DNA of 22,105 bases from a virus (lineage: Duplodnaviria > Heunggongvirae > Uroviricota > Caudoviricetes), in the IMG/VR virus record IMGVR_UViG_2671180609_000024; one strand, given 5' to 3'. Of the stretch, positions 1,255 through 21,060 are shown one piece after another; the stretch's first letter is position 1, and the number at the start of each line of letters is the position of its first letter. The notes beneath the pieces were generated by a model, which saw nothing but the letters and a program-made list of their open reading frames with translations, was not told the DNA's origin and searched no databases. Position numbers and translations under genes: made by a program.

Positions 1255-1368
1255 ATAAAACCGGGTGATGCAAAAGTAGCCGTTTGATTCACAAGGCCAT
1301 TGACGCATCGCCCGGTTAGTTTTAACCTTGTCCACCGTGATTCACGTTCGTGAACATGTCCTTTCAGG

Positions 1369-1444
1369 GCCGATATAGCTCAGTTGGTAGAGCAGCGCAT
1401 TCGTAATGCGAAGGTCGTAGGTTCGACTCCTATTATCGGCACCA
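1369..1444 (+). tRNA. thrW: tRNA-Thr (anticodon CGU), 76 nt with encoded CCA
   Basis: GCCGATATAGCTCAGTTGGTAGAGCAGCGCATTCGTAATGCGAAGGTCGTAGGTTCGACTCCTATTATCGGCACCA; cloverleaf with anticodon loop TTCGTAA; sits immediately downstream of proA as thrW does in E. coli. Confidence 0.93.
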
Positions 1445-1458
1445 TTTAAATCAATAAG

Positions 1459-2433
1459 TTACACATCATTAGTACCTTCCTTATTTTTTGACTGGGACAA
1501 ATTTGGGACCGATGGGTTCAGGATCGAGTCTATTTGCCGTGCGTGTTCGGTAAGGTGATTAGGTGCAAGGTGAGCATATCGACGAACCATTTCGATAGAC
1601 TCCCAGCCTCCCATTTCCTGTAACACTGACAACGGGACTCCGGCTTGAACCAGCCAACTTGCCCAGGTGTGTCTCAAGTCGTGAAATCTGAAATCATCAA
1701 TACCAGCCCGTCTCAGCGCCGCTTTCCAGGCTGTGTTTGCGTCATACCGCATCTTCCTTACTGTTGGCGCTTTCGTTCCGTCTGGTTTGGTACAGCTTTC
1801 CTTGTACACAAATACCCAACGGTGATGATTACCGATTTGTTTTTTCAATACGCGACATGCAGTATCATTCAGCGCAACGCCAATTGCGCGGTTTGATTTA
1901 CTCTCTTCCGGGTTTATCCATGCCACCCGGCGCTGCATATCTATTTGTTGCCATTCAAGGTTGATGATGTTCGAGCGTCTTAAGCCTGTTGCCAGTGCAA
2001 ATTCAACAACAGACTTTAATGGCTCCGGACATTCATCAATCAGCCTTTGTGCTTCATGGGGCTCCAGCCAGCGGATCCGTTTATTCTTTGGTTGAGGCAC
2101 TTTAATAATTGGTGCCTTATCGAGCATTTTCCATTCACGCTCTGCGGCTCTTAGCAGGGCCTTTATAAATGAAAGATGCGTAGCCTTCGTTGCAACGGAC
2201 GCTGGTTTTGGCGTGTATTCTGGAACAGGTTTCCCTTTTTTTCTGCATGCTTCTGCCCTGAGTTTCCAGTTTTCCTCATGACGCCGGTTCGTCATTTTCT
2301 GCATTGCTGAATAAATTTTTGATTCAGTAATGTCTCTTAGTTGCATTCCTGCGAAATGTTGAAGCCAGAATCCGATCTGCTTTCCATTGAGCCTGTTTCT
2401 CTGCGCGACGTTCGCGGCGGCGTGTTTGTGCAT
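1459..2433 (-). CDS. Tyrosine-type phage integrase, lambdoid/DLP12-like catalytic domain; the first 19 codons of the ORF are an out-of-frame reading of a lambda-N-like gene start, so the native N-terminus is probably missing
   Basis: C-terminal catalytic signature [39 protein letters not shown] (R..HxxR..Y tyrosine recombinase motifs). Adjacent to and transcribed toward the tRNA. The ORF start [19 protein letters not shown] is the +1-frame reading of ATGGATGCACAAACACGCCGCCGCGAACGTCGCGCAGAGAAACAGGCTCAATGGAAAGCAG. Confidence 0.8.
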
Positions 2434-2437
2434 CCAT
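2377..2437 (-). pseudogene. Lambda N-like antiterminator gene fragment (first 20 codons, [20 protein letters not shown]), then breakpoint
   Basis: Minus-strand sequence ATGGATGCACAAACACGCCGCCGCGAACGTCGCGCAGAGAAACAGGCTCAATGGAAAGCAG matches the lambda N start as I recall it, then diverges. The listed ORF 2324..2569 is a read-through of this fragment. Confidence 0.8.
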
Positions 2438-2592
2438 CTGGATTCTCCTGTTAGTTAGCTTTGGTTGTGTGTGGGAGTCGTAGTCCTGAACGAAAACACC
2501 CCGCAATGGCACATTGGCTGCTAATCCGGATTCGCACTTCCGGCCAATGCTTCGTTTCGTATCACACACACCAAAGCCTTCTGCTTTGAATG

Positions 2593-2607
2593 CTGCCCTT
2601 CTTCAGG
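2593..2607 (-). promoter_or_regulatory. nutL boxB-like hairpin (GCCCTGAAGAAGGGC on the minus strand)
   Basis: Plus strand reads GCCCTTCTTCAGGGC, the reverse complement of the lambda nutL boxB; it lies between the PL-like promoter and the N fragment, as in lambda. Confidence 0.75.
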
Positions 2608-2664
2608 GCTTAATTTTTAAGAGCATCACCTTCATGGTGGTTAGTGCGTCCTGCTGATGTGCTT

Positions 2665-2693
2665 GGTATCACCGCTAGTGGTATTTGTGTCAA
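2665..2693 (-). promoter_or_regulatory. Lambda PL-like promoter (-35 TTGACA, 17-bp spacer, -10 GATACC) firing toward N' and int
   Basis: Minus strand reads GATGTTGACACAAATACCACTAGCGGTGATACCAAGCACATCAGCAGG, near-identical to the lambda PL core (TTGACATAAATACCACTGGCGGTGATACT). Confidence 0.75.
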
Positions 2694-2727
2694 CATCGCC
2701 AGAGATAATTTATCACCGCAGATGGTT
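2667..2727. promoter_or_regulatory. Three lambda-type CI operator sites (OL1-, OL2-, OL3-like 17-mers)
   Basis: TATCACCGCTAGTGGTA (2667-2683), CAACATCGCCAGAGATA (2691-2707), TATCACCGCAGATGGTT (2711-2727); each within one mismatch of lambda OL1/OL2/OL3 as I recall them, with lambda-like spacing. Confidence 0.8.
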
Positions 2728-2908
2728 ATCTGTATGTTTTTTATATAGATTTATTTTTTGCAGGGTTGTGTGGCTTGGGAGGTGATCGAGAGATCAGAAT
2801 TGCGTTGTTTAGTGAGTTGCACCTATTAATTTTAAAATAAATACAATTGGTATCGATGAATTACAGTTGGTGGGCTGTTGGTGAGTAATTTTATTCAGGG
2901 TGATTTAT

Positions 2909-3352
2909 ATGGACGAATATGTTTATAGCGCAAGGCATAATGCTTTTTTCCCTGTGGATATGATTGATAAATATAAATCAGAGGGATGGGATTTATCAGA
3001 CGCTAAGGAAGTAAATCAAAATATTATCAGTGAGTTTATGGCTGAACCGCCACAAGGAAAAATCCGTATTGCCGGAGATGATGGGCTGCCTGCGTGGGCA
3101 GATATTCCTCCACCCACGCATGAAGAGCTTATTGAAATTACTGAATCAGAAAGACAGCTACTAATTAACCAGGCCAACGAATACATGAACAGTAAGCAAT
3201 GGCCCGGTAAAGCGGCTATTGGTCGTCTGAAAGGTGACGAACTGACGCAATATAATTTGTGGCTGGATTATCTGGACGCACTGGAGCTGGTCGATACTTC
3301 CGGTGCGCCAGATATTGAATGGCCTACGCCTCCGGCAGTTCAGGCCAGATGA
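2909..3352 (+). CDS. tfa: Tail fibre assembly protein (Tfa family)
   Basis: C-terminal Tfa signature LELVDTSGAPDIEWPTPP (compare lambda Tfa VDTSTAPDIEWP). Likely start is the ATG at 2909; the listed ORF begins at an upstream GTG at 2900. Confidence 0.8.
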   Translation: MDEYVYSARHNAFFPVDMIDKYKSEGWDLSDAKEVNQNIISEFMAEPPQGKIRIAGDDGLPAWADIPPPTHEELIEITESERQLLINQANEYMNSKQWPGKAAIGRLKGDELTQYNLWLDYLDALELVDTSGAPDIEWPTPPAVQAR

Positions 3353-3917
3353 CATCCGGCGCGGTGCTGGTATCTGTTGCCGTCACCGCGTCAATGTAAT
3401 CCAGCACGGCGTTAAGTCGGGTTGTTTCTGCCTGAGTCAGTTTCCGTCCGGCCTGTAACTTCAGCTGAATCAGACTAATGGAAGCCATTGCTGCATCAAT
3501 CAGTGATTGGCGCTGTGCTTCTGCCGCGTCTACTGCGGCACTGTGTTGTGCCTCAGTGTCTGTCACCCATTTCTCACCATCCCATTTATCGTATGGCGTT
3601 AACGGTGAAATCGTGACATAACCGTCTTTGATGGCACCGATATAATCCACTGTAACAGCTGCGCCATTTTCGATTGAGTAAACAGTCTCATTGCGATGGT
3701 CTTCTTCATGGCTCCATCCCTTACCTGTAAATACTGCCACTCTTCCCGGAATGTTTTCGCCAGGGTCAATACCAGTGGAACAGGCGGGCATACTTACGCC
3801 AGTATTAATATATTCATCAGACCAGCCCGTATACTCAGATGTTTCAGCATCATAATAAAAACAACGCATATCGCCCGGCACTGTAGCCAGCCCATTTTCA
3901 TCAAAAACAGGTTTCAT
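3324..3917 (-). CDS. Tail fibre assembly protein, alternative copy in inverted orientation (Tfa')
   Basis: C-terminus ...DYIDAVTATDTSTAPDVIWPELPEA carries the same Tfa signature; convergent with the plus-strand tfa, as in Mu G / P1 C / e14 P invertible segments. Confidence 0.8.
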   Translation of the reverse strand: MKPVFDENGLATVPGDMRCFYYDAETSEYTGWSDEYINTGVSMPACSTGIDPGENIPGRVAVFTGKGWSHEEDHRNETVYSIENGAAVTVDYIGAIKDGYVTISPLTPYDKWDGEKWVTDTEAQHSAAVDAAEAQRQSLIDAAMASISLIQLKLQAGRKLTQAETTRLNAVLDYIDAVTATDTSTAPDVIWPELPEA

Positions 3918-4414
3918 TATTTAGCCCTCACCAGAAAGTTAAATGCAATATTTCGCGGTCTGACTGCAACAAAATTCACACCATCACCCACAGAGTTACT
4001 GGTGAAATTAAATCGTGAAAATCCTGGCTGATTTCCGGCGATGCCATCATGAAAGTTAATTGCGTGTCCCGCACCTTCGCCTATATTCCCGGCAAACTGA
4101 GAAAAGTTTGTAGCTGCCTGCCAGCTTAATAATTCGCGACCACCGTCTGCACCTCGCCCGTCATCCCAGATACGAATGAAATCACCGCGGGCTTCAGGTA
4201 ATACCAGCGAAGGAAACACTTTCGCCAGCACAGGATAATCAGTGGCAGAGAATTTCGCGCCGTTGAACTTCAAAAACACCATACAGGACCAGCTGTCGAT
4301 TACAGTATTTGGCATTGCAGCGGACGGCCAGAAGAACGGAACGCCAATAGCTGGAGCACCTTCTCTCAAACCAACGTTTATGAAAATGCAGAAATAACGA
4401 GCAAATGGCATCAT
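3917..4414 (-). pseudogene. Tail fibre C-terminal variable-segment fragment (Stf'-like); no constant N-terminal tail-fibre part in the window
   Basis: Gly/Asn/Phe-rich ORF immediately upstream of, and coupled to, tfa' (3917 overlap); its 5' end contains the recombinase crossover-like site. By position it is the alternative variable exon of an invertible tail-fibre gene. Confidence 0.6.
4361..4386. promoter_or_regulatory. Candidate Hin/Gin/Pin-type crossover site (hix/gix/pix-like 26-mer)
   Basis: TTCTCTCAAACCAACGTTTATGAAAA matches hixL (TTCTTGAAAACCAAGGTTTTTGATAA) at about 19 of 26 positions; about 55 bp upstream of the invertase start, where crossover sites lie in known systems. Confidence 0.5.
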
Positions 4415-4440
4415 TCCTGCTTTTGTCAGGGAGATCTACC

Positions 4441-4995
4441 ATGCTTATTGGCTATGTACGTGTGTCAACAAATGACCAGAACACAGATCTACAACGTAAT
4501 GCGCTGAACTGTGCAGGATGCGAGCTGATTTTTGAAGACAAGATAAGCGGTACAAAGTCCGAAAGGCCGGGACTGAAAAAACTGCTCAGGACATTATCGG
4601 CAGGTGACACTCTGGTTGTCTGGAAACTGGATCGGCTGGGGCGCAGTATGCGGCATCTGGTCATTCTGGTTGAGGAGTTGCGCGAACGTGGCGTTAATTT
4701 TCGCAGCCTGACGGATGCTATTGATACCAGTACCCCAATGGGGCGCTTTTTCTTTCATGTGATGGGGGCCCTGGCTGAAATGGAACGAGAACTGATTGTT
4801 GAACGAACAAAAGCTGGACTGGAAGCTGCTCGCGCACAGGGACGAATTGGTGGACGTCGTCCCAAACTTACACCAGAACAATGGGCGCAGGCCGGACGAT
4901 TAATTGCAGCAGGAATTCCTCGCCAGAAGGTAGCGATCATCTATGATGTTGGTGTATCGACACTGTATAAGAAGTTTCCGGCCGGAGATAAATGA
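4441..4995 (+). CDS. pin: Serine-type DNA invertase, Pin/Hin/Gin/Cin family
   Basis: MLIGYVRVSTNDQNTDLQRNAL... resolvase/invertase catalytic domain with the active-site Ser in YVRVST, plus a C-terminal HTH. SD GGGAG 7 nt upstream of the ATG at 4441; the listed ORF begins 12 codons upstream. Confidence 0.9.
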   Translation: MLIGYVRVSTNDQNTDLQRNALNCAGCELIFEDKISGTKSERPGLKKLLRTLSAGDTLVVWKLDRLGRSMRHLVILVEELRERGVNFRSLTDAIDTSTPMGRFFFHVMGALAEMERELIVERTKAGLEAARAQGRIGGRRPKLTPEQWAQAGRLIAAGIPRQKVAIIYDVGVSTLYKKFPAGDK

Positions 4996-5052
4996 AACCG
5001 TAGCACGTCGTATGCAAGATCGTGCTGCGGTTTATGCTTACCACTTGAAGAT

Positions 5053-5922
<870 letters not shown>

Positions 5923-6006
5923 CTAACCCTTTGAATTTACATAGCGCAAAAAGATACCTTTCCTCATAATGTGAGCTAATTTTATGTTTCGTTTGATGAT
6001 CGGGTC

Positions 6007-6067
6007 GGTCTCGAAAACCGGAGTAGGGGCAACTCTACCGGGGGTTCAAATCCCCCTCTCTCCGCCA
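6007..6067 (+). pseudogene. 3' fragment (about 61 nt) of a tRNA-Ser gene (serU-type) - an att-site remnant, not a functional tRNA
   Basis: GGTCTCGAAAACCGGAGTAGGGGCAACTCTACCGGGGGTTCAAATCCCCCTCTCTCCGCCA matches the anticodon-arm-to-3'-end of E. coli tRNA-Ser(CGA) as I recall it; upstream sequence does not form the acceptor or D arm. Confidence 0.8.
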
Positions 6068-6649
6068 CTTTATCAATGACTTATCTCCCGACTTCCCGTC
6101 TTGCTTTTCCTAAACAGAACAATCGTAGAATATTCTTGAAGGGTTAGATCGTCACTGTTTTCTGTTCGATACTGTGACATTCAGCACTTGATTCGCTATG
6201 GATCTGACAGGAAGGTTTTGAGCGAAAATCTGCAGTTATTCAGTCGTTTTCTTATCGGTCACCATTATTCTTTTAGACATTGATCCTACAAAGCTGCCGC
6301 AAAGTTGGTGGTGGGAACTGAAGTTGCGTAGAGAAGGGGTCAATACCCGGAGGCAAACATGGGCTGGCAAAAGTGTAGCGGTATTAGGCGCAGCTATTTA
6401 GCCTAGTTATGTTTTATGAAAACTTGATATCATATAAGTGTCTTACTTATTGGCTGTAAATAAGTTTTTCCTAAGGAATTGTTTCTTGAGTATCATTTGT
6501 AACTGTAACGGAATTTATAATCCTTTGCTTTATTGTTACGGTATTTTTTATCACACCCTATTTTTAGTGGTTTTTTATACTGAAGTTTGGCAAAGTGAAC
6601 TTTATATACATATACTTCATCCTGGTTTCAGTTAAATTGGGGGGATGAT

Positions 6650-7393
6650 ATGGCAACTACATGTTCAGTTATATTGATTTTGGAGTCCTTTGATGTTTAT
6701 TTCGGAAAAGAGAGTGTGTTTCTGGAGAGAGGTTCATCTGTACTTGTCGACTCTAGCTCTAGAGATTTTTTCCTGACATATCCTGAAAGAGTGATAGTGG
6801 CGGATTTTGGCGCTGAGTTTATTAGTCGCTATTTGAAAGCTAATAACTTAAGGGATATTTCTGATTGTAGGGAATATCCATCTTATTTAAAAATAAACTT
6901 TGCTGACTTCAGTTTAATTAAAGGATTAATTAGTTGGGCTAATCACTGTGCTGAATACATAGAAATTTTTGATGAGTCTATTGCTTTTACATGTCTCTCT
7001 GCATTTTCTTCTGAAAAACAATTTGGAGTATTTCTGTTTGGATGTTTGAAAAGCACAGGGGCTAAAGTTAAAACGATTATTCATACGGATTTATCTGCAC
7101 CATGGCGTCTTAAGGATATATCATCAAGATTATATCTCAGCGAAAGTTTACTAAAGAGGAAATTGAAAGAAGAGGGGGTATCATTCAGTAAGATCATACT
7201 TGATGAGAGGATGCAAATGGCTGAATATTTACTCAGCACTCGTTGTTATCCTATTAGTAAAGTAGCTAAGGTCTGTGGTTATGCCAGTGTCTCATACTTT
7301 ACTTATGTATTTAGACGTTATTTTGGTGTTTCTCCAAGTCAATACTCTCAGAGGAGTTCAGAAAGTAAAATTCTTACTCACCAGGGAATCTGA
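6650..7393 (+). CDS. AraC/XylS-family transcriptional regulator (AppY/GadX/Rns-like)
   Basis: C-terminal dual-HTH AraC domain (WRLKDISSRLYLSESLLKRKLKEEGVSFSKIILDERMQMAEYLL ... VCGYASVSYFTYVFRRYFGVSPSQY) aligns by eye to AppY. Very AT-rich gene with a long AT-rich leader; SD GGGGGATGA before the ATG. Confidence 0.85.
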   Translation: MATTCSVILILESFDVYFGKESVFLERGSSVLVDSSSRDFFLTYPERVIVADFGAEFISRYLKANNLRDISDCREYPSYLKINFADFSLIKGLISWANHCAEYIEIFDESIAFTCLSAFSSEKQFGVFLFGCLKSTGAKVKTIIHTDLSAPWRLKDISSRLYLSESLLKRKLKEEGVSFSKIILDERMQMAEYLLSTRCYPISKVAKVCGYASVSYFTYVFRRYFGVSPSQYSQRSSESKILTHQGI

Positions 7394-7395
7394 TC

Positions 7396-7872
7396 ATTGT
7401 TCTTGCCCCCTTATTTCCAGACAGGGGGGGTATCTTAAGTTAACGTTACCCGCTGACGTCGATATTCTCGCGGAGAGCGATAACCCAACGCACTGTGCGG
7501 ATGGTTTTCATTGTAATGTTCGATCGCCACTGCAAGATTATGCAATGCCGTTCTTACATTCGGTTTCGGCATGAACGCGATGTAGTCTTCCTTCATCGTT
7601 TTCACGAACCTTTCTGCAATTCCATTACTCTGAGGACTGCTGATTGCCGTTGTGCAGGGCTCCAGATTCAACTCTCTGGCGAACTGCCGTGTTTCATGCG
7701 CTCTATACGCTGAACCGTTATCTGTCAGCCACTGGATGGACTGTTCCGGTACTTTATCGCCAAAGCGTTTTTCTATCGCTCCTAACATGACATCCTGCAC
7801 TGTCGCTTTATCGTAACCTCCCGTGCTTGCGGCCCAGTCTATGGCTTCACGATCGCAACAGTCCAGGGCGAT
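7396..7872 (-). mobile_element. IS2-like (IS3-family) element remnant: 3' part of the orfB transposase plus a terminal inverted repeat; 5' truncated
   Basis: Translation ...[38 protein letters not shown]...[18 protein letters not shown] matches the IS2 InsD C-terminal region as I recall it. Terminal sequence around 7396-7420 (revcomp CCCCCCCTGTCTGGAAATAAGGGGGCAAG) resembles an IS2 end. In-frame stop at 7873-7875. Confidence 0.8.
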
Positions 7873-8147
7873 TCATCTGGGCCAATCCTTGCTCATAACA
7901 GGCATTCACTTCAGTCATGGCAGAAAGGTATGCATGCTGGAGAAGTCGTGAAAGAAAAGAAGACTGCTGCGCCGTTTGTCGTCACGTTTATCTTCATTGG
8001 CTATGCAAGTCGTAATACAAGGTGGGACAAAACTGAGACACATAAGGCCTCGCAATGGCTTGCAAGGCTTTACATGTTTTGATGTGGTGGGACGTGTGAG
8101 CGCAGTGTTGATGGGGTAATGCTTTGAATTAGAAGCGGATTCTTATA

Positions 8148-8193
8148 ATTCGTAATGCGAAGGTCGTAGGTTCGACTCCTATTATCGGCACCA
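8148..8193 (+). repeat. Direct repeat of the tRNA-Thr 3' end (46 bp, exact): att junction between element 1 and the P4-like element
   Basis: ATTCGTAATGCGAAGGTCGTAGGTTCGACTCCTATTATCGGCACCA is identical to positions 1399-1444 of the full tRNA gene. Confidence 0.9.
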
Positions 8194-8355
8194 TCTCAAC
8201 TTCCTCAAACGTCCGTATTAGTCCATAAAATCTCTGATTTATAACATTTTTTATTCTTTTAAGTCCATAGTAGTCCGTAACCATCCAGTAGAATCCGGTA
8301 CTGAATGTGTATAGGATTGTGTATATGTTCCTGTTCGGTCTGGATTCCTATACAC

Positions 8356-9537
8356 ATGCCTTTAAACGATATGCAGATTCGCCGCGCTAAGCCTGAAGCT
8401 AAAGCCTATACATTTGGAGATGGGCTAGGGTTGTCATTACTTATAGAACCTAATGGAAGCAAGAGTTGGCGGTTCCGCTATCGCTATGCCGGCAAACCCA
8501 AAATGATCTCGCTTGGTGTTTACCCAACGATCACCCTTGCCGATGCTCGTTCCCGTCGTGATGAAGCTCGAAAACTTGTGGCAGAAGGAAAGAACCCTAG
8601 TGAGGTTCGAAAAGAGCAAAAGCTAGCTATGCAAACAGAGTCAGAGAACGCCTTCGAAAAGATAGCCAGAGAGTGGCATCAACTTAAATCTGCTAAATGG
8701 TCGGCGGGATATGCATCAGACATCATGGAAGCGTTTAAGAACGACATTTTTCCTTATGTCGGAACAAGGCCTGTGGGAGAGATTAAACCGCTAGAGCTGC
8801 TGAACGTTCTGCGTAAAATTGAGAAACGTGGTGCGTTGGAGAAAATGCGCAAAGTGCGGCAGCGTTGCTCCGAAGTGTTTCGCTACGCAATTGCAACGGG
8901 TAGGGCGGAGTACAATCCTGCGGCTGATCTCTCCAGCGCTCTCGAAGTACACCAATCCAATCATTTCCCATTCCTAAAAGCTGATGAGATACCTGATTTT
9001 CTACGTGCCTTAGAGGGTTACTCCGGGAGTAAGCTTGTCCAGATAGCCACGAAATTACTGATGATTACGGGTGTGAGAACCATCGAATTACGCGCGGCAT
9101 TATGGCAAGAATTTGATCTGGATAACGCTATTTGGGAAATTCCTGCTGAAAGGATGAAAATGCGTAGGCCACATCTTGTGCCCTTATCATCTCAAGCGGT
9201 AGATTTACTCAATGAACTCAAGATCATGACAGGGAACTATCGTTATGTTTTTCCAGGGCGGAACGATCCGAATAGGCCAATGAGCGAAGCGAGTATAAAT
9301 CAAGCCATTAAGCGTATTGGGTATGGAGGAAAAGTCACTGGACATGGTTTTCGTCATACCCTTTCTACAATCCTGCATGAGCAAGGTTTTGAGAGTGCTT
9401 GGATTGAAATCCAGTTGGCTCATGTAGATAAAAATTCTATTAGGGGGACTTATAACCATGCTCAATATTTTAGTGGAAGGAAGTCTATGATGGACTGGTA
9501 CAGTAATTTGATATTTGAAAGACTAAAAAGGAGTTAA
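8356..9537 (+). CDS. int: P4-type tyrosine integrase (N-terminal arm-binding domain + catalytic domain)
   Basis: N-terminus MPLNDMQIRRAKPEAKAYTFGDGLGLSLLIEPNGSKSWRFRYRY is the classic P4/CP4-type integrase start; C-terminal HGFRHT ... Y catalytic motifs. Immediately follows the tRNA-derived repeat and reads away from it. Confidence 0.92.
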   Translation: MPLNDMQIRRAKPEAKAYTFGDGLGLSLLIEPNGSKSWRFRYRYAGKPKMISLGVYPTITLADARSRRDEARKLVAEGKNPSEVRKEQKLAMQTESENAFEKIAREWHQLKSAKWSAGYASDIMEAFKNDIFPYVGTRPVGEIKPLELLNVLRKIEKRGALEKMRKVRQRCSEVFRYAIATGRAEYNPAADLSSALEVHQSNHFPFLKADEIPDFLRALEGYSGSKLVQIATKLLMITGVRTIELRAALWQEFDLDNAIWEIPAERMKMRRPHLVPLSSQAVDLLNELKIMTGNYRYVFPGRNDPNRPMSEASINQAIKRIGYGGKVTGHGFRHTLSTILHEQGFESAWIEIQLAHVDKNSIRGTYNHAQYFSGRKSMMDWYSNLIFERLKRS

Positions 9538-9540
9538 TTT

Positions 9541-9957
9541 GTGTCTCAACCACTTTCGGAAATATTGACATGGGATGATGAACAATGGGAGGTATTTGTC
9601 CATGATTGGCTTATTGTCTGTAAATCAGATGATTACCCGTGGAGCGAACGTTTGGGAGGAGCTGGAGATAAAGGTAGAGACGTTGTTGGATATAAATCGG
9701 ATCCTAACGTAGAAGGTTATTCTTGGGATAATTATCAATGCAAACTGTACAAAAAAAGTTTAGGGTTCTCTGATGTTGTAGTTGAGTTTGGAAAACTTAT
9801 CTATTTTACTCTGAATGGTGATTATCCCATCCCTCAGAAGTACTTTTTTGTGGCACCCTATGATTTATCTACTACATTTTCTAATTTATTGAAAAATAAA
9901 AACGAGCTTAAAAAAGCAGTCCTTGATTCATGGGATTCAGCAATTTCAAAAAAATAA
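9541..9957 (+). CDS. Cargo gene 1: small protein with a PD-(D/E)xK (Mrr-like) nuclease motif; possibly the N-terminal part of a longer protein (see findings)
   Basis: GTG start 7 nt after SD AAGGAG and 3 nt after the int stop. Motifs GGAGDKGRDVVGY and, about 20 aa later, YQCKLYKK (D ... QxK) look like a restriction-endonuclease-like core. Very AT-rich. Confidence 0.6.
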   Translation: MSQPLSEILTWDDEQWEVFVHDWLIVCKSDDYPWSERLGGAGDKGRDVVGYKSDPNVEGYSWDNYQCKLYKKSLGFSDVVVEFGKLIYFTLNGDYPIPQKYFFVAPYDLSTTFSNLLKNKNELKKAVLDSWDSAISKK

Positions 9958-10547
9958 CTAAAAAGATTGATATTCCATTAGATGATGAAATAAAAAAATA
10001 TATTGAGGATTTTGATTTTAGTATTTTTTACTCTCTACCCTTATCATTGATTTTAAATGATATTGCAAATACACACCTTTATTTTAAGTACTTTAACGAG
10101 CTGTATGTCGTGAGAATCCCTCCAAATGAAATTCCAACATACAATTCAAAAAAAGAGTCTGTATATGTTAATGCACTGCTTCAAGCCTATTCAGAGCATG
10201 GAAATAAAACTTATAGTTCTTTCTTAGAGCTTGATGATCCATACAGACGACACTTTAATAATAGTAGAAATGATTTTTATTTTGCATCTTCGCTTGAGGT
10301 TTTTGTCCGCGAAGTATTTAAAGATGATGTATTCAAAGCATTGAAATGTTACATTTCATCTTCAATTGAACCCGTCTTTTATGAAGACCATAATTATGCA
10401 TTTATTAGGTGTAATGCAGTCTTGAAGCAGGCTGTTCTGACACCAATTGCACATTCAGTACTATCAAAAATATGTGAAGCAAATGATAAAAAAGGAATAT
10501 GCCATCATTTGGTTAATGATGGTGAAGTAATTTGGACGGTGAGATAA
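9930..10547 (+). CDS. Cargo gene 2: hypothetical protein (205 aa as listed); may be the C-terminal part of gene 1 joined by a shift in an A7 run
   Basis: ORF overlaps gene 1 by 28 nt in another frame; both frames pass through the A7 homopolymer at 9948-9954. No domain recognised by eye. Confidence 0.5.
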   Translation: MGFSNFKKITKKIDIPLDDEIKKYIEDFDFSIFYSLPLSLILNDIANTHLYFKYFNELYVVRIPPNEIPTYNSKKESVYVNALLQAYSEHGNKTYSSFLELDDPYRRHFNNSRNDFYFASSLEVFVREVFKDDVFKALKCYISSSIEPVFYEDHNYAFIRCNAVLKQAVLTPIAHSVLSKICEANDKKGICHHLVNDGEVIWTVR

Positions 10548-11005
10548 TGGTTAGAATTTATAATTCAAGTTTAGAAGTGGCATGTCGAATGGCGAAAGTG
10601 CTCGTCGCTATTTATCCTTCTTCATTAAGCCTTGAACGGCTTATTTGTTTTGATTTTATTTTAGTAAATCTTAAGGATTTTTTACCTGAAGAGATTAGTC
10701 TTCATCCTCCAATACCCCGTAGAGATGCTCAGTTAGCCCTAAAACGAGAGATTGTTTTAGAATCATTGGCTTTGTTGCAAGGCTATGAACTAGCCTCAAA
10801 AATTTATACACATCGTGGTTTTGTATATAAAGCTTCTGAAAAAACATATGCATTTACAAATTCTCTACATAATGAATATGTTGCGCAGATGGAGCATAAT
10901 ATAAATTTGGTGGTTAAGTTATATAGTGATATTCCTGATGAGCAGTTGCAATCAATTATAAAAAATAAAATTGGCAAATATGATATGGAATTTAATTATG
11001 AATGA
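10547..11005 (+). CDS. Cargo gene 3: hypothetical protein (about 152 aa)
   Basis: ATG overlaps the gene-2 stop (TAATG at 10545-10549); its stop overlaps the next gene's start. Same AT-rich composition. Confidence 0.55.
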   Translation: MVRIYNSSLEVACRMAKVLVAIYPSSLSLERLICFDFILVNLKDFLPEEISLHPPIPRRDAQLALKREIVLESLALLQGYELASKIYTHRGFVYKASEKTYAFTNSLHNEYVAQMEHNINLVVKLYSDIPDEQLQSIIKNKIGKYDMEFNYE

Positions 11006-11630
11006 CAATTTTTTTACGTTCAGAAAAATAAAGGTAACCGGATTCAATAAATTAGATGCTATAATTGAATTTGGTTCTAAATTGACTATTTTATATGGTG
11101 GTTCTGACTCTGGAAAAACATACATATATTATTTGATTCGATATTTATTAGGGAGTGAAAAACTAAAAAATAAAGATATCGATCATGCTCAAGGTTATGA
11201 TTTAGCCTATCTGGAATTTAATTTTCAAGGTAGGGTAATGACAATTGAGAGGTCTCTTCAGGATAGCGCCCATTACAGATTATATGATTCGAGCATTGAA
11301 AATGTTAGTGAAGCTAATCTGTTGATGGTTTTTTCCAAAAGTGCTTCGTCTAAAAAGAGTTTTTCATCATACTTTTATGGTAGGTTGAATTTCAAAGAGG
11401 CTAAAGTAAGAACAAACTTAAGTAATACTCTTCATAAATTTAATCTTAATAATGTTTTTGAATTTTTTTGTATTGATGAATTAAGAGTGTTAACTGAGAA
11501 GTCGTTAATTCTTTCTGATATTCCTAGCGAGGAGACAAAAAGAAAGTCTGAATTTAAATTCCTTTTAACTCAGAGAGATGATACTAACTCCTTAGCAGAA
11601 AAACCAAATAAAAAAGCAAGATATTTTTAA
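10998..11630 (+). CDS. Cargo gene 4: N-terminal head of an SMC/Rad50/RecN-like ABC ATPase (Walker A)
   Basis: FRKIKVTGFNKLDAIIEFGSKLTILYGGSDSGKTYIYYLIRYLLG is the canonical SMC-like N-terminal strand-loop-Walker A arrangement (GxxxxGKT). The ORF ends at a TAA inside a T5/A7 tract and the next ORF continues in the same frame. Confidence 0.65.
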   Translation: MNDNFFTFRKIKVTGFNKLDAIIEFGSKLTILYGGSDSGKTYIYYLIRYLLGSEKLKNKDIDHAQGYDLAYLEFNFQGRVMTIERSLQDSAHYRLYDSSIENVSEANLLMVFSKSASSKKSFSSYFYGRLNFKEAKVRTNLSNTLHKFNLNNVFEFFCIDELRVLTEKSLILSDIPSEETKRKSEFKFLLTQRDDTNSLAEKPNKKARYF

Positions 11631-11660
11631 AAAAATCAAATTGCAAATATTTATGAGGAA

Positions 11661-12251
11661 TTGAAAGCGCAATTAATTTATCCTGAATATGATCAAGTCA
11701 TTGTTTCAAGAGAACTTGAGAAAGTAGAGCAAGATATTGAATCATCGAAAGATATATTGAAAGGTATTGTTGATGCACTTGATGATAAGAAGCAATTATT
11801 AAAAGAGTTAAGTGATGAATTATATTCAATCAGTGACAGGGAAAAATACTTATCATTACTCATTGAAAGATTTAGTCTTCTTAAAGACCAATACTTTATA
11901 GATCTACAAAGAATAGATGTTGTATCACAGGCGAATTTCTATTTAAATAATTTTGCAGATATTTATTGTGAGTTCTGTAATACACCGCAAAAAAAAGAAA
12001 ATGAAATATCATATGATGATTGTTTTTTGTCGTGTAATGCAGAAAAATTGAAAATCAAAAGCCAGCTGAAAGGATTAATTGAATCAATCGGATCTAATGT
12101 TCGCGAACATGAATTAATTATGTTAAGAAAAAATGATGTTAATGAAATTTATCAATCAGAAAAAAGTGATTTTAAGACGTTAGAAGATAAAAATATAAAA
12201 CAATACATTCATCTCTTGAATCACTTTATGAATATAAAGACAATCTTTTAA
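11661..12251 (+). CDS. Cargo gene 5: coiled-coil segment of the SMC/Rad50-like ATPase with a Cys4 cluster (CxxC-x14-CxxxC); probably not independently translated
   Basis: Heptad-rich sequence (EKVEQDIESSKDILKGIVDALDDKKQLLKELSDELYSI...), cysteines in YCEFCNTPQ...DDCFLSCN. Same frame as gene 4, separated by a single TAA; the listed start is a TTG with no convincing SD. Confidence 0.5.
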   Translation: MKAQLIYPEYDQVIVSRELEKVEQDIESSKDILKGIVDALDDKKQLLKELSDELYSISDREKYLSLLIERFSLLKDQYFIDLQRIDVVSQANFYLNNFADIYCEFCNTPQKKENEISYDDCFLSCNAEKLKIKSQLKGLIESIGSNVREHELIMLRKNDVNEIYQSEKSDFKTLEDKNIKQYIHLLNHFMNIKTIF

Positions 12252-12817
12252 TGGATCACACAAAACATAGCATTCTATCTTCATTACAAGATAAAGAAGA
12301 TGATGTTGACGAACTTAAATACTCCGCCGAGGACTTTGACTCCTTAACAGTAGCTGATTTGTATGATATAGAAATAGCGATGCAAGACTTTTTGAATGAT
12401 ATAAATTTTGAAAATTCTAAAGATAACAAAGTGCGATTTGACGAAGATACATATGACTTTAATATCAATGGGAAACGCCGAGGAATGTTTGGTAAAGGTA
12501 CCCGTGCAGTAATGCATGCTATATTTACCATTTGCTTTGCGGAATTTTTATCAAGAAAAGGGAATCCATTCATTGGATTTGTTGTGCTTGATAGTCCATT
12601 AGTGACGCACTTTGATAAAGATAGAGGGGGTTCTCTATCGGATGTTAATAGCGTCAGTCTCAGTGATTCATTTTATCACGCATTAATCAAAAGGGACTAT
12701 AATTTCCAGATTGTAATTCTTGAGAATAAAGGTCCGACGTTCCAAATAAAAATTAATGATGCAAATAAAATCCATAACTTAAATAAGAATGGAAGCTCTG
12801 GTTTTTATCCTGTTTAA
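12251..12817 (+). CDS. Cargo gene 6: C-terminal head of the SMC/Rad50-like ABC ATPase (signature-like region, Walker B/D-loop, H-loop)
   Basis: FGKGTRAVMHAIFTICFAEFL followed by PFIGFVVLDSPLVTHFD (hydrophobic strand + D, Walker B-like) and a downstream His (FYHAL). ATG overlaps the gene-5 stop (TAATG). Confidence 0.6.
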   Translation: MDHTKHSILSSLQDKEDDVDELKYSAEDFDSLTVADLYDIEIAMQDFLNDINFENSKDNKVRFDEDTYDFNINGKRRGMFGKGTRAVMHAIFTICFAEFLSRKGNPFIGFVVLDSPLVTHFDKDRGGSLSDVNSVSLSDSFYHALIKRDYNFQIVILENKGPTFQIKINDANKIHNLNKNGSSGFYPV

Positions 12818-13175
12818 TACATTAAAAATATAACTGCTAATTGGGGTGCTCGAAATTATATTTCGTTTCGAGCGCTCAGTTCATTTCTAAATAATTTGCA
12901 AAATTATTTTGGGTACTTTCGCCTCTACACTTCCTTCGGGTGGTTCCACAATAATGGATCTCACCGGCGTTTGATATTTTATAATCTAACCCCTTAGCGC
13001 GCGCAGCCCCCCACGCCTGCTCGCTTCGCTTAACAGACTGGTTTTCATGCATTCCGCAAATCGTCTCAGAAGCCACCACACAAGGGCTTTCGCGTCAAAA
13101 ATGGTGCATGAGAATCATGCGTTTTCATGCGCTATAGACATGCACTCATGCGCTCTCAGGCCAGCCAGGGAAAAG

Positions 13176-13215
13176 GCGTAAAAAATCCCAGTACTGGACC
13201 GGGATTACGTGGGCT
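13176..13215 (-). terminator. Rho-independent terminator for the minus-strand sid-psu-delta operon (possibly bidirectional)
   Basis: Stem AATCCC (13184-13189) / GGGATT (13201-13206), flanked by an A-run on one side and a T-run on the other; on the minus strand the hairpin is followed directly by TTTTTT. Lies just 3' of the Ogr/Delta-like gene. Confidence 0.6.
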
Positions 13216-13226
13216 TTTTTTGCTAA

Positions 13227-13499
13227 TCAGACAGGAATTTGCTGACGGCTTGACAGCTTTGACGCGGAGCCATAGCGATTGAGAGTTTGCTGTTGTTTTT
13301 CCGGCATTTGTGCTTTCTCTGATTCCTGTTCATTGCGCCGGGGCTTCATGATTATCGTATCCACACTTTCCAGTGCGGTAAATGTGTAGGAACATTCAAG
13401 ATTCTGGCACTGATACCATGAGCGTTTAACCGATGGTGCTTCATAGGCGGAGGTTCTGGCGTGTGCCGTCGTACCGCATTCGGGACATTTAAGTGCCAT
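13227..13499 (-). CDS. Ogr/Delta-family zinc-finger late-gene activator (single-domain, 90 aa)
   Basis: MALKCPECGTTAHARTSAYEAPSVKRSWYQCQNLECSYTFTALESVDTIIMKP aligns by eye with P2 Ogr (CPxC..AHARTS ... QCQN.xCS.TF..ESV). Confidence 0.85.
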   Translation of the reverse strand: MALKCPECGTTAHARTSAYEAPSVKRSWYQCQNLECSYTFTALESVDTIIMKPRRNEQESEKAQMPEKQQQTLNRYGSASKLSSRQQIPV

Positions 13500-13504
13500 T
13501 AATA

Positions 13505-14056
13505 TTACTCCTGCATGCCGTTAATGTAATCCAGACGTTGCTGAAAGCGCAGTTGTTGTGCAGGGGTGTAAGAGCTCTGGCAATCACGAACCATCATGGG
13601 GTCAGGCATCACACCGGATTCATCCAGAATCATACGATAATCCCCGGCAATTTCAGGCGGTGTTATTGCCAGCTGGCGAACCAGAGCATTGCGTAATATA
13701 CGGGACGCAACGTCAACCCCTCCGCGCCCCTTCAGGAACGGAGCCAGTGCAGATGTCAGGGCTGCTCCATTCGCCTGCATAAAATTGCTGAGAGCGTCTT
13801 CTGTGCAGGCCTCCATCAGTTGATGCTGCGAGTAAATGCATTCGCGCGCAGCACAGTTAATTTGCCATTTCAGCACATCCAGATGTTCCCGCTGTAATTC
13901 GAGCTGTCGAGCATAATCTGCTGGTTTTTCCATGGCAGTGAGGAGTGATTCTATCTGTTGTTCAACGGCTTTTCGGCTCTCACTATGTCCAGCCCACAGA
14001 ATACGGGCATTTCTAAAACTGATAAGCGCTTGGTCTGGAGTGACTCGGGCCATCAT
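13505..14056 (-). CDS. psu: Psu-like polarity suppression / capsid decoration protein
   Basis: Segment LDVLKWQINCAARECIYSQHQ ... LSNFMQANGAALTSALAPFLKG ... TPAQQ resembles P4 Psu as I recall it (KWQ.N.AA ... FMQ.HG.AL..ALAP.L.G ... TPAQ). Size 183 aa against 190 aa. Confidence 0.7.
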   Translation of the reverse strand: MMARVTPDQALISFRNARILWAGHSESRKAVEQQIESLLTAMEKPADYARQLELQREHLDVLKWQINCAARECIYSQHQLMEACTEDALSNFMQANGAALTSALAPFLKGRGGVDVASRILRNALVRQLAITPPEIAGDYRMILDESGVMPDPMMVRDCQSSYTPAQQLRFQQRLDYINGMQE

Positions 14057-14805
14057 ACTGCTTTCTCCTTCTCAGCACGTTCCTGACGAACCTTCATTTT
14101 ATGCATAGCTGCTGGAGAGAGTTTATTACTGAAATCCAGACGGGCCGCATAATCCGGGGCAACTCCCGCCAGTTTAAACACGGGGTCCTGTTCGGGCATC
14201 GCATCGTTAGTCAGAGCCGGTCTGGTGATATGTTTATGAATAAAATCTTTCAGCAGTGTGTCCGGGTCATTAACTGAATGCACCACACCGACAACTGCGC
14301 TGGCTTCCCTGCCCATTGTTGATTTGAGCAGGCTTAGTGTCTGGATTAGTGCTTTTCCATGCGACTGCATAAAATCTTCCCAGATTTGTTTTGCGCGAAT
14401 ACCCACAAGGGTGTCGTGCGCGTGGATATACTTTCCGGCTAATTCCGCAGCCTCCTGCGGCAAAAGTGCATTTTCGCTTTCCTGAGCCGCCAGCAGCTCA
14501 TCAAAATCCTCAAGCGTTTCTCGTCCCAGCGCAATTTCCGTGCGCAGTTTTTTCATTTCCTTTGAGACTACGCCCTGACTTTCACGAAATAGCGTGCGCC
14601 ACTCCTCATTCAGGGCGTTCGTCGTGGCTTCCATTTCAGCGCGGCGCTGGCGGATTGTCGCAATATTATCCGCTGCCGCTTTTTGCTGACGACGTGCTTC
14701 AAGCCATGCAGATTTGGTGGCATTCACTTTCTCAAGCGCCTGTTGCGTCGAAACAGGGATAGAAATTTCAACGATCGGGTTATTGTTCTGTTCTGGGATT
14801 GTCAT
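14053..14805 (-). CDS. sid: Probable Sid-like external scaffold (capsid size determination) protein
   Basis: 250-aa alpha-helical, Ala/Glu/Gln-rich protein, first gene of the minus-strand operon and overlapping psu by 4 nt; size and position match P4 Sid (244 aa). Called by context, not by a recognised motif. Confidence 0.5.
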   Translation of the reverse strand: MTIPEQNNNPIVEISIPVSTQQALEKVNATKSAWLEARRQQKAAADNIATIRQRRAEMEATTNALNEEWRTLFRESQGVVSKEMKKLRTEIALGRETLEDFDELLAAQESENALLPQEAAELAGKYIHAHDTLVGIRAKQIWEDFMQSHGKALIQTLSLLKSTMGREASAVVGVVHSVNDPDTLLKDFIHKHITRPALTNDAMPEQDPVFKLAGVAPDYAARLDFSNKLSPAAMHKMKVRQERAEKEKAV

Positions 14806-14971
14806 GTCAGCACCTAGTGGTTTGTCGTGGTGTCAATTGTGCTGTGATGCATACAAAGCTGCCATTGAACGCCATTGTGCGAGCGACAAGACAAAGACTG
14901 AACCGCCCCGGACCTCTTTTGGCTAGCCAGAAAAGGCCTCGTTTAACTAAGGCTGTTTCAGACTTACCTTA

Positions 14972-15187
14972 ACTATTCACTACTATTCACTTAGGTAAAA
15001 AAAATAGGTAATACAGAAGGTTATAAGGTGAAGGGTTGGCATGGCAGTATTCATCGACTGTTCATAACTGTTCACATGGGAATAAAATTATTTATGGTAT
15101 TTTTTCATAATGGGTGGTTTTTTTATTCCTCGTAGCTATTTGTTTTTTGCTCCTCACCACTATTCACCCTTATTCAGGAGTATTCAA
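14972..15187. repeat. Cluster of about 8 direct iteron-like repeats, T(A/G)TTCA(C/T) (P4 type-I-iteron-like TGTTCACC variants), in the divergent intergenic region
   Basis: ACTATTCACT ACTATTCACT (tandem, 14972-14991), AGTATTCAT (15047), TGTTCAT (15059), TGTTCAC (15069), TATTCACC (15161), TATTCAG (15171), TATTCAA (15181), all in the same orientation. Confidence 0.6.
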
Positions 15188-15738
15188 CAGGCACATAAAT
15201 AGACTGCATGTTTTTGCCGGGGAATAACATTTTCGCCTCTGGCCATGGTGTTGCATTTCATACTGATTTTTATAAAACTAGATCTGTCCGGTTCTTTATG
15301 GATTCATTCGGATATATTTTACGATTTAAGGTGATGTTATTTAATATCAAGGTTTTTATGCAGGCCCAATGTTTATAAGTTGGATGCGATTCAAAAATAT
15401 GCCCGGAAATTGGGGCCTGCAATGCAAGGCCTCGTGTAGAAGTTGTACTGCCTTGCTGTATTGGCGGTGGGGTTAGCACTATCAGGTGCAATGACCCATA
15501 GGATAGTAAACCCTGGGTGAATGGTAGTTCCTATTAATGCTCCTGTATTTATAGTCCGCAGGCATGGTATTTATTATGTCATTTTATATGGTTTAATCGG
15601 GCTTTAAATTCCATAAAATCAATATGTGACGCTAAATAAAAAATGCGTGCGCAGGTGGTTTATATACACATAATAAGGAACTACCTGAACCCGGATAAAT
15701 TCATCCGGACTGTTGTGGAAATTAAAGAGGGTAGATAA

Positions 15739-15999
15739 ATGCGTAATATTTCTGTGTCTGCGCCAGCTCCTGCTGCGCCATTATTTCCTGTATCGAACCA
15801 TCATGAGCGATTTTTACGCCTGCCTGAGGTGATGCACTTATGCGGGTTGTCCCGTTCGACCGTTTACGACCTGATCAGCCGCGATGCGTTTCCGAAGCAG
15901 ATCCCGCTTGGCGGTAAAAATGTCGCCTGGGCACAGTCTGAGGTCAGCGCATGGATGGCGGACCGCATCAGCGCCCGTGGGCGGGGATGTGATGCATGA
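15739..15999 (+). CDS. AlpA/Vis-family small DNA-binding regulator (excisionase-like HTH)
   Basis: [48 protein letters not shown] matches the AlpA/Vis HTH pattern. SD AGAGGG 7 nt before the ATG. Confidence 0.8.
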
Positions 16000-16549
16000 T
16001 GATACCTGCATACATTAAATACCTTTATTCTGGCTTGCTTACTGTCGTCATTTCCAGGTATAGTTTTTCCGCTGTCGCAAAATCGGCAGCCGGAATTGGC
16101 GTTCCGTATAACTTATTGGCGACAATTGACGCCCCTTGCGTCTTTTTTTACGTCGTAGCTCAGGCACAACCATTTTCAGGGCTGTGGTGTTTATGCTTAC
16201 ACCATGGTTCTATCGAGATAATGGTAGTCCGGGCGGGGCAGCCTTCGGGCTGGCCGGTTTCCAATAAGGCCGGTTACGCCAACCCCGTTCGGGCTGCCAC
16301 CAGTGAAATTGGCGTTTCCGGTGGTAGCAATAACCGCTACTTATTGGAGGCTGCCATCATGGCTACAATCCTCACCCCGTCACACCCGCAATATGTCTTT
16401 GTGTTTGCCGCAATCCGCCGTGCTGACACTCACCCCCGCATCTGTATGCTTCGCACTGTCTCCTGCGATGAGCGTTCCGCGCGCCGTTTGCTAGTCCGAG
16501 ATTATGTACTCTCCCTTTCTGCACGGCTGCCTGCCGGGGAGGTGACGCT

Positions 16550-16771
16550 ATGAACCAGTTTGAGATTTCCTACGACGATGTTGTAAGGCTGAAACATTTA
16601 CGCAATGTGGGTGAGTATGTAACTGGCATGGCAGCCCTGCAGGACTGTTATGAAAAGCCAGCAGGTGCCCAATGCGAACAACTGGTTTCCCTCATTTATC
16701 TGATGACAGAGCAACTGGATGGAGTGGTGCAACGCTGCCATGACGACCTGATGAATGCGGAGGTGGCCTGA
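16550..16771 (+). CDS. Hypothetical small protein of the P4-like early operon (73 aa)
   Basis: SD GGGAGGTGA 4 nt before the ATG; ATGA-type overlap with the next ORF; same operon as alpha. Function unknown (positional analogue of P4 epsilon/orf151). Confidence 0.55.
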
Positions 16772-17094
16772 TGATATGCTGTGAATCTCTTCTGGCACTT
16801 CGTGCCGCTCTGTATCGCCGTGCCGTTGCCTGTGCCTGGCTGGCTCTAAGCAATCATCAGGAACGTTATTCCGGCCTGACGCTCGCTGAACTTGAAGATG
16901 CCATAGCCCGCGAGCTGGAAGGGTTCTATCTGCGCCAGCATGGGCAGCAAAGAGGGCTGGAAATTGCCTGCGCGTTGCTTTCGGATCTGATGGAGTCGGG
17001 GCCGCTTAAAGCCTGTCCGGTTCTCTCACTGCTCGGAATGACGGTCATGGATGAACTTTGTTCCCGTCACCTCAACAAACCAGCGCTGCACTAA
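16771..17094 (+). CDS. Hypothetical protein of the P4-like early operon (107 aa)
   Basis: SD GGAGGTGG upstream; start overlaps the previous stop; ends 13 nt before the alpha start. Confidence 0.55.
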
Positions 17095-17107
17095 GGAGGG
17101 CCGCACA

Positions 17108-19441: not shown

Positions 19442-19448
19442 CTGACCT

Positions 19449-19469
19449 AAGACCGGCTGTGCCGGTCTT
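19449..19469. terminator. Perfect palindrome / hairpin (AAGACCGG ... CCGGTCTT) between the convergent alpha and cargo genes; no U-tract
   Basis: AAGACCGGCTGTGCCGGTCTT forms an 8-9 bp stem, 8 nt after the alpha stop. No flanking T-run on either strand, so terminator function is uncertain; it could be a protein-binding palindrome. Confidence 0.35.
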
Positions 19470-19573
19470 AAATCCGCTACAGGAAATTATCTCAAAATAT
19501 ATATCGATAAAATTTAAAAGTTATATGCTAAGGCGTCAGCGGAAAATGCATCTAATTCATTGTTAGATGATGT

Positions 19574-20530: not shown

Positions 20531-20829
20531 TTGTTAGCCTCAAAATTAATAATGAGTATTAAAATTTAATTGATATTGTCTATAAAATGTAGCGATGCAA
20601 TTTTATTGCAACGAAATGATTTTTACAACATACCATTATCGCTAAACAAAATCGCACCCATCAAATCAACTTACGTTACAATCACTACAAAGCGATTGCA
20701 TTTAAATTCAAAACAGTTTTCTGTTGGGCGCATTTTTTGTTGTACTGGACTAAAGAGAAAAAATGGGGTAAGGAACAAATACCTTCCGTGCTCAAAAATT
20801 AGGTTTTTATGCACTTATTAATCAGTCAA

Positions 20830-20921
20830 GGTGAACAGTAAAGTGTTCACTTCTTATCAATCGTTAATTTCATATCTTTTTGAATATTAATGAAAAAAAA
20901 CACAATGAGTAGTATGAACAG
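20830..20921. repeat. Inverted pair of P4 type-I-iteron-like octamers (GGTGAACA gtaaag TGTTCACT) plus a further inverted copy (ATGAACAG)
   Basis: GGTGAACAGTAAAGTGTTCACT at 20830-20851 (GGTGAACA is the reverse complement of TGTTCACC); ATGAACAG at 20914-20921. Confidence 0.5.
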
Positions 20922-21060
20922 TTTTCCCCCAAAAAAAGTTTTTTCTGCCTTGAGAATGCGCGGAAAGCGAACGCCTTCACCAATGTGTATAGGGGTGTGT
21001 GTAGTTTAAATCTTCTATTTTAATTTATGTATTAAAATCATTGTGTTGGTGGCGATTATT

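Follow-up and report, generated by a model that had tools for sequence, protein, structure and literature searches.

The tRNA-Ser fragment inside the thrW prophage of this DNA (22,105 nt, analysed at its full length and referred to here as the window) is, judged from sequence comparison, one part of an entire prophage attR junction that goes beyond a scrap of tRNA and includes a phage arm, an attachment core and host flanking DNA. We consider it very probable that this junction, derived from serU, was captured together with its host flank, and that it is now a passenger, probably inert, in other phages and in the thrW prophage. We refer to it as an orphan attR because the left end of the element that carries it is thrW, with a thrW-adjacent integrase. 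The orphan attR and the DNA to its right comprise the following features (loci numbered L are comparison loci).

4993-6005, no strand: type-A phage arm (P arm) belonging to the orphan serU attR; right end of an e14/SfV-like serU prophage
5053-5826, minus strand: LEM-3-like GIY-YIG gene (Pfam PF22945)
6006-6069, plus strand: core (O), 62 nt of serU (positions 29-90) plus CT
6070-6345, plus strand: captured host flank (B'), native DNA downstream of serU
6346-6401, plus strand: IS630-family stub, the last 56 bp including the right inverted repeat, 98% identical to L014:2501-2556
6402-7393, plus strand: AraC-family regulator cassette, with a gene at 6650-7393 (247 aa; Pfam HTH_AraC/HTH_18)
7435-7871, minus strand: remnant of an IS3-family transposase (C-terminal rve domains; Pfam rve_3/rve)

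The tRNA fragment

Positions 6006-6067 of the window (cggtctcgaaaaccggagtaggggcaactctaccgggggttcaaatccccctctctccgcca) are identical to positions 29-90 of the serU tRNA-Ser(CGA) gene at 62 of 62 nucleotides, the reference being the 90-nt serU of strain NU14 (L002:2973-3062). The preliminary description had recognized about 61 nt of the 3' part of a tRNA-Ser, lacking the 5' portion, at 6007-6067; the actual fragment starts at 6006. Identity to serU extends from the 5' strand of the anticodon stem to the CCA. Immediately 5' of this core is an imperfect serU-like stretch of ~10 nt (5997-6005) with three mismatches. The 5' strand of the acceptor stem and the D arm are missing, and the DNA upstream of the fragment has no match to serU positions 1-18. 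A chance match is excluded because the identity is complete over 62 nt and the next 278 bp match the DNA downstream of serU.

The fragment cannot be extended to a complete tRNA. ARAGORN, applied to the whole window, and Rfam, applied to the window at the gathering threshold, both called thrW as the sole tRNA and nothing at 6006-6067. A permissive scan of 5850-6200 returned only sub-threshold partial matches, among them a match to tRNA-Sec of 27.5 bits (gathering score, 47) in which the acceptor stem is unaligned. In seven related loci, ARAGORN likewise called no tRNA at the corresponding position. The sequence at 6006-6067 does not form the complete cloverleaf, with all arms paired, of a functional tRNA-Ser gene.

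The tRNA part is unchanged in the copies that we fetched from serU loci, which include intact genes (NU14 and Q5) and attR copies (Q5 and MS6193). Among copies of the fragment in IMG/VR, 12 of 30 have changes in the T stem, at positions 39-41 of the fragment, within a run of G. One IMG/VR copy, L023 (IMGVR_UViG_2537561945_000005), is interrupted by ~1.35 kb of inserted DNA, presumably an IS, that separates the first 41 nt of the tRNA fragment from the GIY-YIG arm. A promoter scan found no promoter-like site directly upstream of the fragment. Since the 5' third of the tRNA is missing, there is no promoter-like site upstream, and the T stem is altered in other copies, the fragment probably has no tRNA function.

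The phage arm and the host flank

The 278 bp that follow the CCA (6068-6345) have 96-98.5% identity to sequence downstream of serU in almost every one of 5426 E. coli genomes, and the homology to the serU flank ends at 6345. Because this flank matches DNA downstream of serU, the source of the fragment is serU and no other tRNA-Ser gene.

On the other side of the core, the window has a counterpart in a genuine serU prophage in strain Q5 (L015), whose right end is 96.6% identical to window 4993-6345; the 100 nt adjoining the core are identical in the window and the Q5 attR. The Q5 prophage is ~39 kb long and e14/SfV-like, with contractile-tail and baseplate genes. At its right end, an acyltransferase gene, a GIY-YIG gene and the 3' fragment of serU are followed by zinT-msrQ-msrP, and at its other end are the integrase and an intact serU that adjoins mtfA. 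The attL and attR of this prophage have in common a 64-bp core that consists of the 62 nt of tRNA and CT. We also constructed a chimeric query in which window 5600-6345 (arm A, core and flank) is joined to the native serU flank beyond 6345. This query occurs contiguously in real genomes, e.g. that of strain Q5. The earlier proposals that an element once integrated at serU left the fragment, and that the GIY-YIG gene came from such an element, are borne out by these comparisons; it had been suggested that the flanking genes be checked for co-occurrence with serU elsewhere, and the GIY-YIG gene does co-occur with it, in the Q5 prophage.

The orphan thus has the composition of an attR: a core that is the 3' part of the target tRNA and starts at the anticodon stem, with the end of a prophage integrated at serU (in Q5) on one side (4993-6005) and native chromosome downstream of serU on the other (6068-6345). 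Neither a partner attL nor a cognate integrase accompanies it; the window contains no serU and no second serU core. The preliminary description had interpreted the fragment as the duplicated 3' end of a tRNA. The 3' part of the tRNA is real, but it is embedded in a full attR that includes 278 bp of chromosome.

At least three unrelated phage arms abut the serU core (at window 6006/6007, L003:8001 and L047:6940). The first is the GIY-YIG/e14-like arm (arm A). The second is a lambda-like arm (arm B) found in strain MS6193, which has a lambda-like prophage at serU with yodB/zinT after the attR, and in phage ev099. The third is that of O157 Sp14, with tccP-espJ. Identity begins at the anticodon stem for all three arm types. 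Because three unrelated arms have the same core start, we conclude that serU has been hit by several phage lineages at one sublocation. Integration at an anticodon-loop sublocation of tRNA genes was reportedly described by Williams in 2002.

The GIY-YIG arm, equivalent to window 5004-6023, recurs in a prophage at ssrA in AVS0453 (L008:6990-7060) and in a thrW-type prophage in 36C_1_fosA3 (L009:6980-7060). These two loci have just the first 15-18 nt of the serU core, i.e. the anticodon stem-loop, CGGTCTCGAAA[A/C]CCG. Beyond the stem-loop their cargo differs: a Dcm methylase and a type II restriction enzyme versus a SIR2-family gene. The break is where the cut of a serU-type integrase would be expected, and the arrangement could reflect either a past swap of int modules or a hotspot for cargo. 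We considered whether it could be a phage attP (P-O-P') and rejected this, since the DNA past the stem-loop is unlike the P' arm of the Q5 attL.

The IS630 joint

At 6345/6346 the captured host DNA is joined to an IS630-family sequence. An intact copy of this element in strain E5 (L014) is 1116 bp long and has the inverted repeats CTAAATAGCTGCGC. The end of the element at 6401 was confirmed in CFT073, Nissle 1917 and other strains. Whereas an IS630-family element has both inverted repeats and a transposase gene, only the right end is present at 6346-6401. We rejected 6345/6346 as a terminus made by the transposase: in the intact IS, CCCGGAGG lies within the element, 56 bp short of its right end. 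Because the fusion point is internal to the IS630 sequence, the joint represents an illegitimate fusion.

The same point in the IS has been used in a different setting. E423 (L012, about 4975-5010) has a truncated terminase gene joined to the identical first base of the 56-bp IS630 stub. The joint sequences are GGTTA/CCCGGAGG in E423 and CAATA/CCCGGAGG in the window, and the TA at the joint is native to both partners. This recurrent IS630 joint may reflect a deletion that ended here by chance, or a fragile site.

The AraC gene and the IS3 remnant

The AraC gene to the right of the stub has a promoter-like site upstream, at 6587-6616 (promoter scan), and the CP-933H-type element has no other AraC gene. 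[quoted passage not shown] Given this secondary citation, and because there is no second AraC gene in the element, the gene at 6650-7393 is probably patE of CP-933H.

Two homologues of the AraC protein, 84% and 55% identical, are encoded between Q and the holin gene in lambdoid prophages (L010:8001-8735 and L011:8001-8735, respectively). At the DNA level, the copy in L010 is an 82.6% homologue of the cassette, and the homology starts at 6408, just past the IS stub. The protein database contains close copies of the regulator and these 84% and 55% homologues only, and when one genome per species was scanned with the back-translated sequence, no chromosomal relative turned up. The preliminary description had allowed that the AraC gene perhaps came from the serU element. 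This does not hold, and neither does an origin in the DNA flanking serU: the gene is beyond both the flank and the IS630 stub, the scan of one genome per species yielded no chromosomal relative, and its homologues are cargo of the Q-holin interval in lambdoid prophages. Hence, the AraC gene is a phage moron that belongs neither to the serU element nor to the neighbourhood of serU. The PatE regulator family is placed at two distinct cargo sites of lambdoid genomes.

The IS3 remnant that follows is annotated in RefSeq as "integrase core domain, missing N-terminus". It is truncated at 7871, where the block common to phages ev099 and mEp332 also has its right limit.

Distribution of the block in phages and genomes

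Window 6005-7871 is present in the complete genomes of phages PhiR70_1, ev099 and mEp332, at 98.8-99.3% identity. The block shared with these phages consists of the core, the flank, the IS630 stub, the AraC gene and the IS3 remnant. In ev099, where it is flanked by the tail-fibre assembly gene (tfa) and int-xis, it occupies the site of the lambda b region; in mEp332 it comes past the tail-fibre genes, close to the end of the record. The lambdoid phage mEp332 is reported to form plaques and is maintained as a lysogen of K-12 (PMC3442831). The left arm in all three phages differs from that of the window and is arm B, the attR arm of the MS6193 serU prophage. As in transducing phages, these genomes contain host DNA adjoining a prophage junction.

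The exact flank/IS630 joint occurs in 30 IMG/VR contigs, with arm A (GIY-YIG) in 22 and arm B (lambda-like) in the other 8; for these eight loci, arm B was assigned by direct inspection of the sequence, a BLAST search with the arm-B reference having given no hits. The same joint is found in 542 of the 5426 complete E. coli genomes, 414 of which have the window-type arrangement (4996-8300, covered over at least 80%). Carriers are located at thrW (O157 and E7476) and at the lambda attachment site by ybhB-bioA (NC19, E423 and IAL7255). The occurrence of an identical breakpoint in several contexts argues for one capture, followed by spread and exchange of arms.

The host element at thrW and the rest of the window

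The element that now carries the block, together with its neighbour in the window, has the following features.

1369-1444, plus strand: intact thrW tRNA-Thr(CGT), attL side of element 1 (ARAGORN, Rfam)
1459-2433, minus strand: tyrosine integrase of a thrW prophage of the CP-933H/Sp1 type (Pfam Phage_integrase, 1e-47 class)
7892-8199, plus strand: attR-proximal arm of the thrW prophage and second copy of the thrW 3' part (repeat)
8305/8356-9537: P4-like integrase
9541-11630: ABC-three-component (ABC-3C) system with an AAA ATPase, right behind the P4-like integrase
13227-14805, minus strand: psu/delta/sid-like genes of the P4-like prophage
16071-16304: isrK and C4 antisense RNA of the P4-like prophage
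17051-19441: primase-helicase of the P4-like prophage
21074-21097: third partial thrW repeat

The 3' part of thrW is directly repeated at 1399-1450 and 8148-8199, the two copies being 96% identical, and it is at the second copy that element 1 really ends and the P4-like element starts. The serU block lies 2.1 kb inside the true attR of a decayed prophage of the CP-933H/Sp1 type. The region at 7892-8199 is 94% identical to the corresponding region of the thrW-type prophage in 36C_1_fosA3, and the integrase at 1459-2433 is annotated in the matching RefSeq genome as "site-specific integrase, missing N-terminus". The view of element 1 as a mosaic at thrW is upheld, with a GIY-YIG side from a serU phage and true ends that are thrW repeats. 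Sp1 has been described as chimeric or highly disrupted (PMC2669165). The literature that we searched contained no description of the serU fragment or junction in Sp1/CP-933H.

EDL933 and many other O157:H7 genomes match window 1300-8350 at 99.9-100% identity. Over this interval, copies of the EDL933 type are ~3.8 kb longer than the window. At 2434-2900, in the interval from the truncated integrase to the tail-fibre genes, the window is without a segment of ~5 kb that is present in strain 27_141091 (L001:3234-8188) and that contains IS1203, a cI-like repressor of the LexA family, cro, cII and replication genes. Because this cI-cro-cII-replication segment is absent and the EDL933-type copies are longer, we regard the window as a further-deleted variant of CP-933H/Sp1.

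Two other parts of the window deserve mention. Tail-fibre assembly genes are in opposite orientation at 2900-3352 (plus strand) and 3324-3917 (minus strand), with an unassigned open reading frame at 3917-4414 (minus strand), and a serine invertase of the Pin/Gin type (4405-4995) adjoins them. The layout of 2900-4995 is that of an invertible host-range switch, kept in a prophage without structural genes. A P4-like satellite prophage of the Sp2 type is in tandem with element 1 at thrW (8148-21097).

Origin of the orphan attR

How did an attR from serU come to be inside a prophage at thrW? Our preferred explanation starts with a temperate phage that would have integrated in the anticodon-loop region of serU, creating a junction of phage arm, 64-bp core and host flank. 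A later illegitimate recombination event would have reached 276 bp past the junction into host DNA, fusing it to the inside of an IS630-family element that preceded a phage AraC (patE) cassette. The capture itself may have been an aberrant excision of the lambda bio type, after which a new int/attP module was acquired. Alternatively, a serU prophage may have recombined illegitimately, anchored by homology, with a lambdoid phage whose b region already contained IS630-patE. The block would then have been carried as a passenger in the "b region", between the tail-fibre genes and attP-int, by phages that use other integration sites, i.e. lambda att and thrW.

We infer this mechanism of capture, the order of its steps and the present inertness of the fragment from the segments described above and from the genomes in which they recur. 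A one-step model of the lambda bio type is insufficient because present carriers have an intact int/attP of a different specificity. Furthermore, at least one additional exchange, at the core or the flank, has to be assumed because one and the same captured block occurs with two different arms, A and B. In a search with a chimeric query, none of the 5426 genomes contained the predicted precursor, in which a longer IS630 would be joined to the region upstream of patE, and no native serU locus was seen with an IS630 at the position of the flank breakpoint.

Could the orphan attR still be a live recombination site? If it were, a serU-type Int with Xis could recombine the orphan with the attL at an occupied serU. 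Several observations are consistent with this: the 64-bp core and ~1 kb of phage arm are intact and match the functional-looking attR of Q5; serU prophages of the Q5 type that have an integrase exist; and attL and attR are both present at serU within one O157 cell. However, no locus that we examined has a thrW-serU rearrangement, the resident serU phage of O157 has another arm type, so that binding of Int to the arm sites may be mismatched, and the core is mutated in many copies. Hence, we consider that a recombination site of this kind would be improbable. A variant is equally doubtful, namely that the 340 bp of host homology would let carrier phages enter serU by RecA. Taken together, an orphan that is alive both as a substrate for serU Int/Xis and as a RecA landing site at serU for mEp332 and ev099 has, in our estimation, a low probability. 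If it were true, the block would favour rearrangements of the chromosome between thrW and serU or alternative lysogeny, and would have helped the acid-resistance regulator patE to spread among E. coli phages.

An origin in situ, in which the resident serU prophage (Sp14/CP-933U) would have recombined with the thrW prophage within the O157:H7 lineage, is very unlikely. It is true that serU of O157:H7 is occupied by a lambdoid prophage whose attR adjoins tccP and espJ, that genomes of the O157 type have three copies of the core, and that recombination between prophages has been documented in O157 (PMC2669165). However, the left arm of the prophage resident at serU in O157 is of a third, unrelated type. 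Between the orphan flank and the serU flank of O157 itself there are 9 differences in 337 positions (97.3% identity), and the native flank in O157 is uninterrupted and runs into yodB. Moreover, the identical block, with identical breakpoints, occurs outside O157, in strains that have it at thrW or at the lambda site and in free phage genomes. Because the block differs from O157's own serU flank, we conclude that it was assembled outside this genome and imported.

Even less credible is that the fragment bounds a separate small integrative element, comprising the AraC gene and the IS remnants, in a serU-like site of the prophage. The ends of islands are often marked by 3' fragments of tRNAs, and the DNA on the right (the AraC gene and the IS pieces) is foreign to the left arm, but the AraC segment has no integrase, no second core repeat and no attL, and the DNA right of the core is the chromosomal flank of serU. 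The truncated IS630 end that separates the AraC cassette from this flank points instead to an illegitimate fusion.

Finally, although some phages have annotated tRNA-Ser sequences with 88-95% similarity to the fragment (vB_EcoS-689R5 and ST101-KPC2phi6.3), we see practically no prospect that the fragment is a phage-encoded tRNA-Ser gene or pseudogene, i.e. a degraded tRNA for translation, given that it is 100% identical to host serU, begins precisely where att cores begin, at the anticodon stem, and has an identical junction as the attR of genuine serU lysogens, a reading that the 278 bp of host DNA from downstream of serU that come next refute.

Comparison with known systems

The captured orphan attR resembles the lambda bio and lambda gal transducing phages, in that a phage genome contains host DNA adjoining one prophage junction. 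The likeness to lambda bio extends to the nature and position of this DNA: an attR (P-O-B') with 276 bp of right-side DNA, between the tail region and the int end. Unlike in lambda bio and lambda gal, the captured piece is tiny and non-coding, and the carriers have regained an intact int/attP of other specificity (lambda att or thrW). Furthermore, the host DNA ends in an IS630 stub here but in phage early genes there, such that extra recombination would be needed. The lambda bio-like origin is one that we infer from the sequence.

Genuine serU prophages include those of Q5 (e14/SfV-like), MS6193 (lambda-like) and O157 (Sp14/CP-933U), and phage SerU-LTIIb. The orphan has the same core, starting at the anticodon stem, and the same host flank; arm A is that of Q5, and arm B is that of MS6193. 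In contrast, the flank in serU prophages continues to yodB/zinT, with an intact serU and an integrase at the opposite end, whereas here the flank stops at 6345 and the element ends are thrW repeats with a thrW-type integrase. Compared with CP-933H/Sp1 of O157:H7, also at thrW, the difference is the cI-cro-cII-replication segment that EDL933-type copies have and the window does not.

Fragments of tRNA 3' ends at the boundaries of islands and prophages share the tRNA sequence from its anticodon stem through to its 3' end, and so do the thrW repeats of the window and the serU fragment. Unlike those boundary fragments, the serU fragment is internal to its element, and it has been moved to another tRNA locus together with its flank.

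Function and significance

What does the fragment do today? Its core and phage arm are intact and could still be bound by a serU-type Int/Xis. We propose that it is probably a neutral fossil that hitch-hikes beside patE.

Remnants of att sites, mosaic prophages and transducing-type capture of host DNA are textbook kinds, and the orphan attR reveals no new mechanism or kind of element; it is an ordinary, if tidy, footprint of phage mosaicism. Nonetheless, it corrects the map of the CP-933H/Sp1 region of O157:H7: the piece of tRNA-Ser is a displaced junction with its flank and marks no element boundary, the true ends of element 1 being the thrW repeats. The 6345/6346 joint is a precise sequence marker that links patE of EHEC to a block circulating in lambdoid phages. 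More generally, the orphan attR represents a natural case in which a temperate phage fixes a piece of host chromosome beside an old attachment junction.
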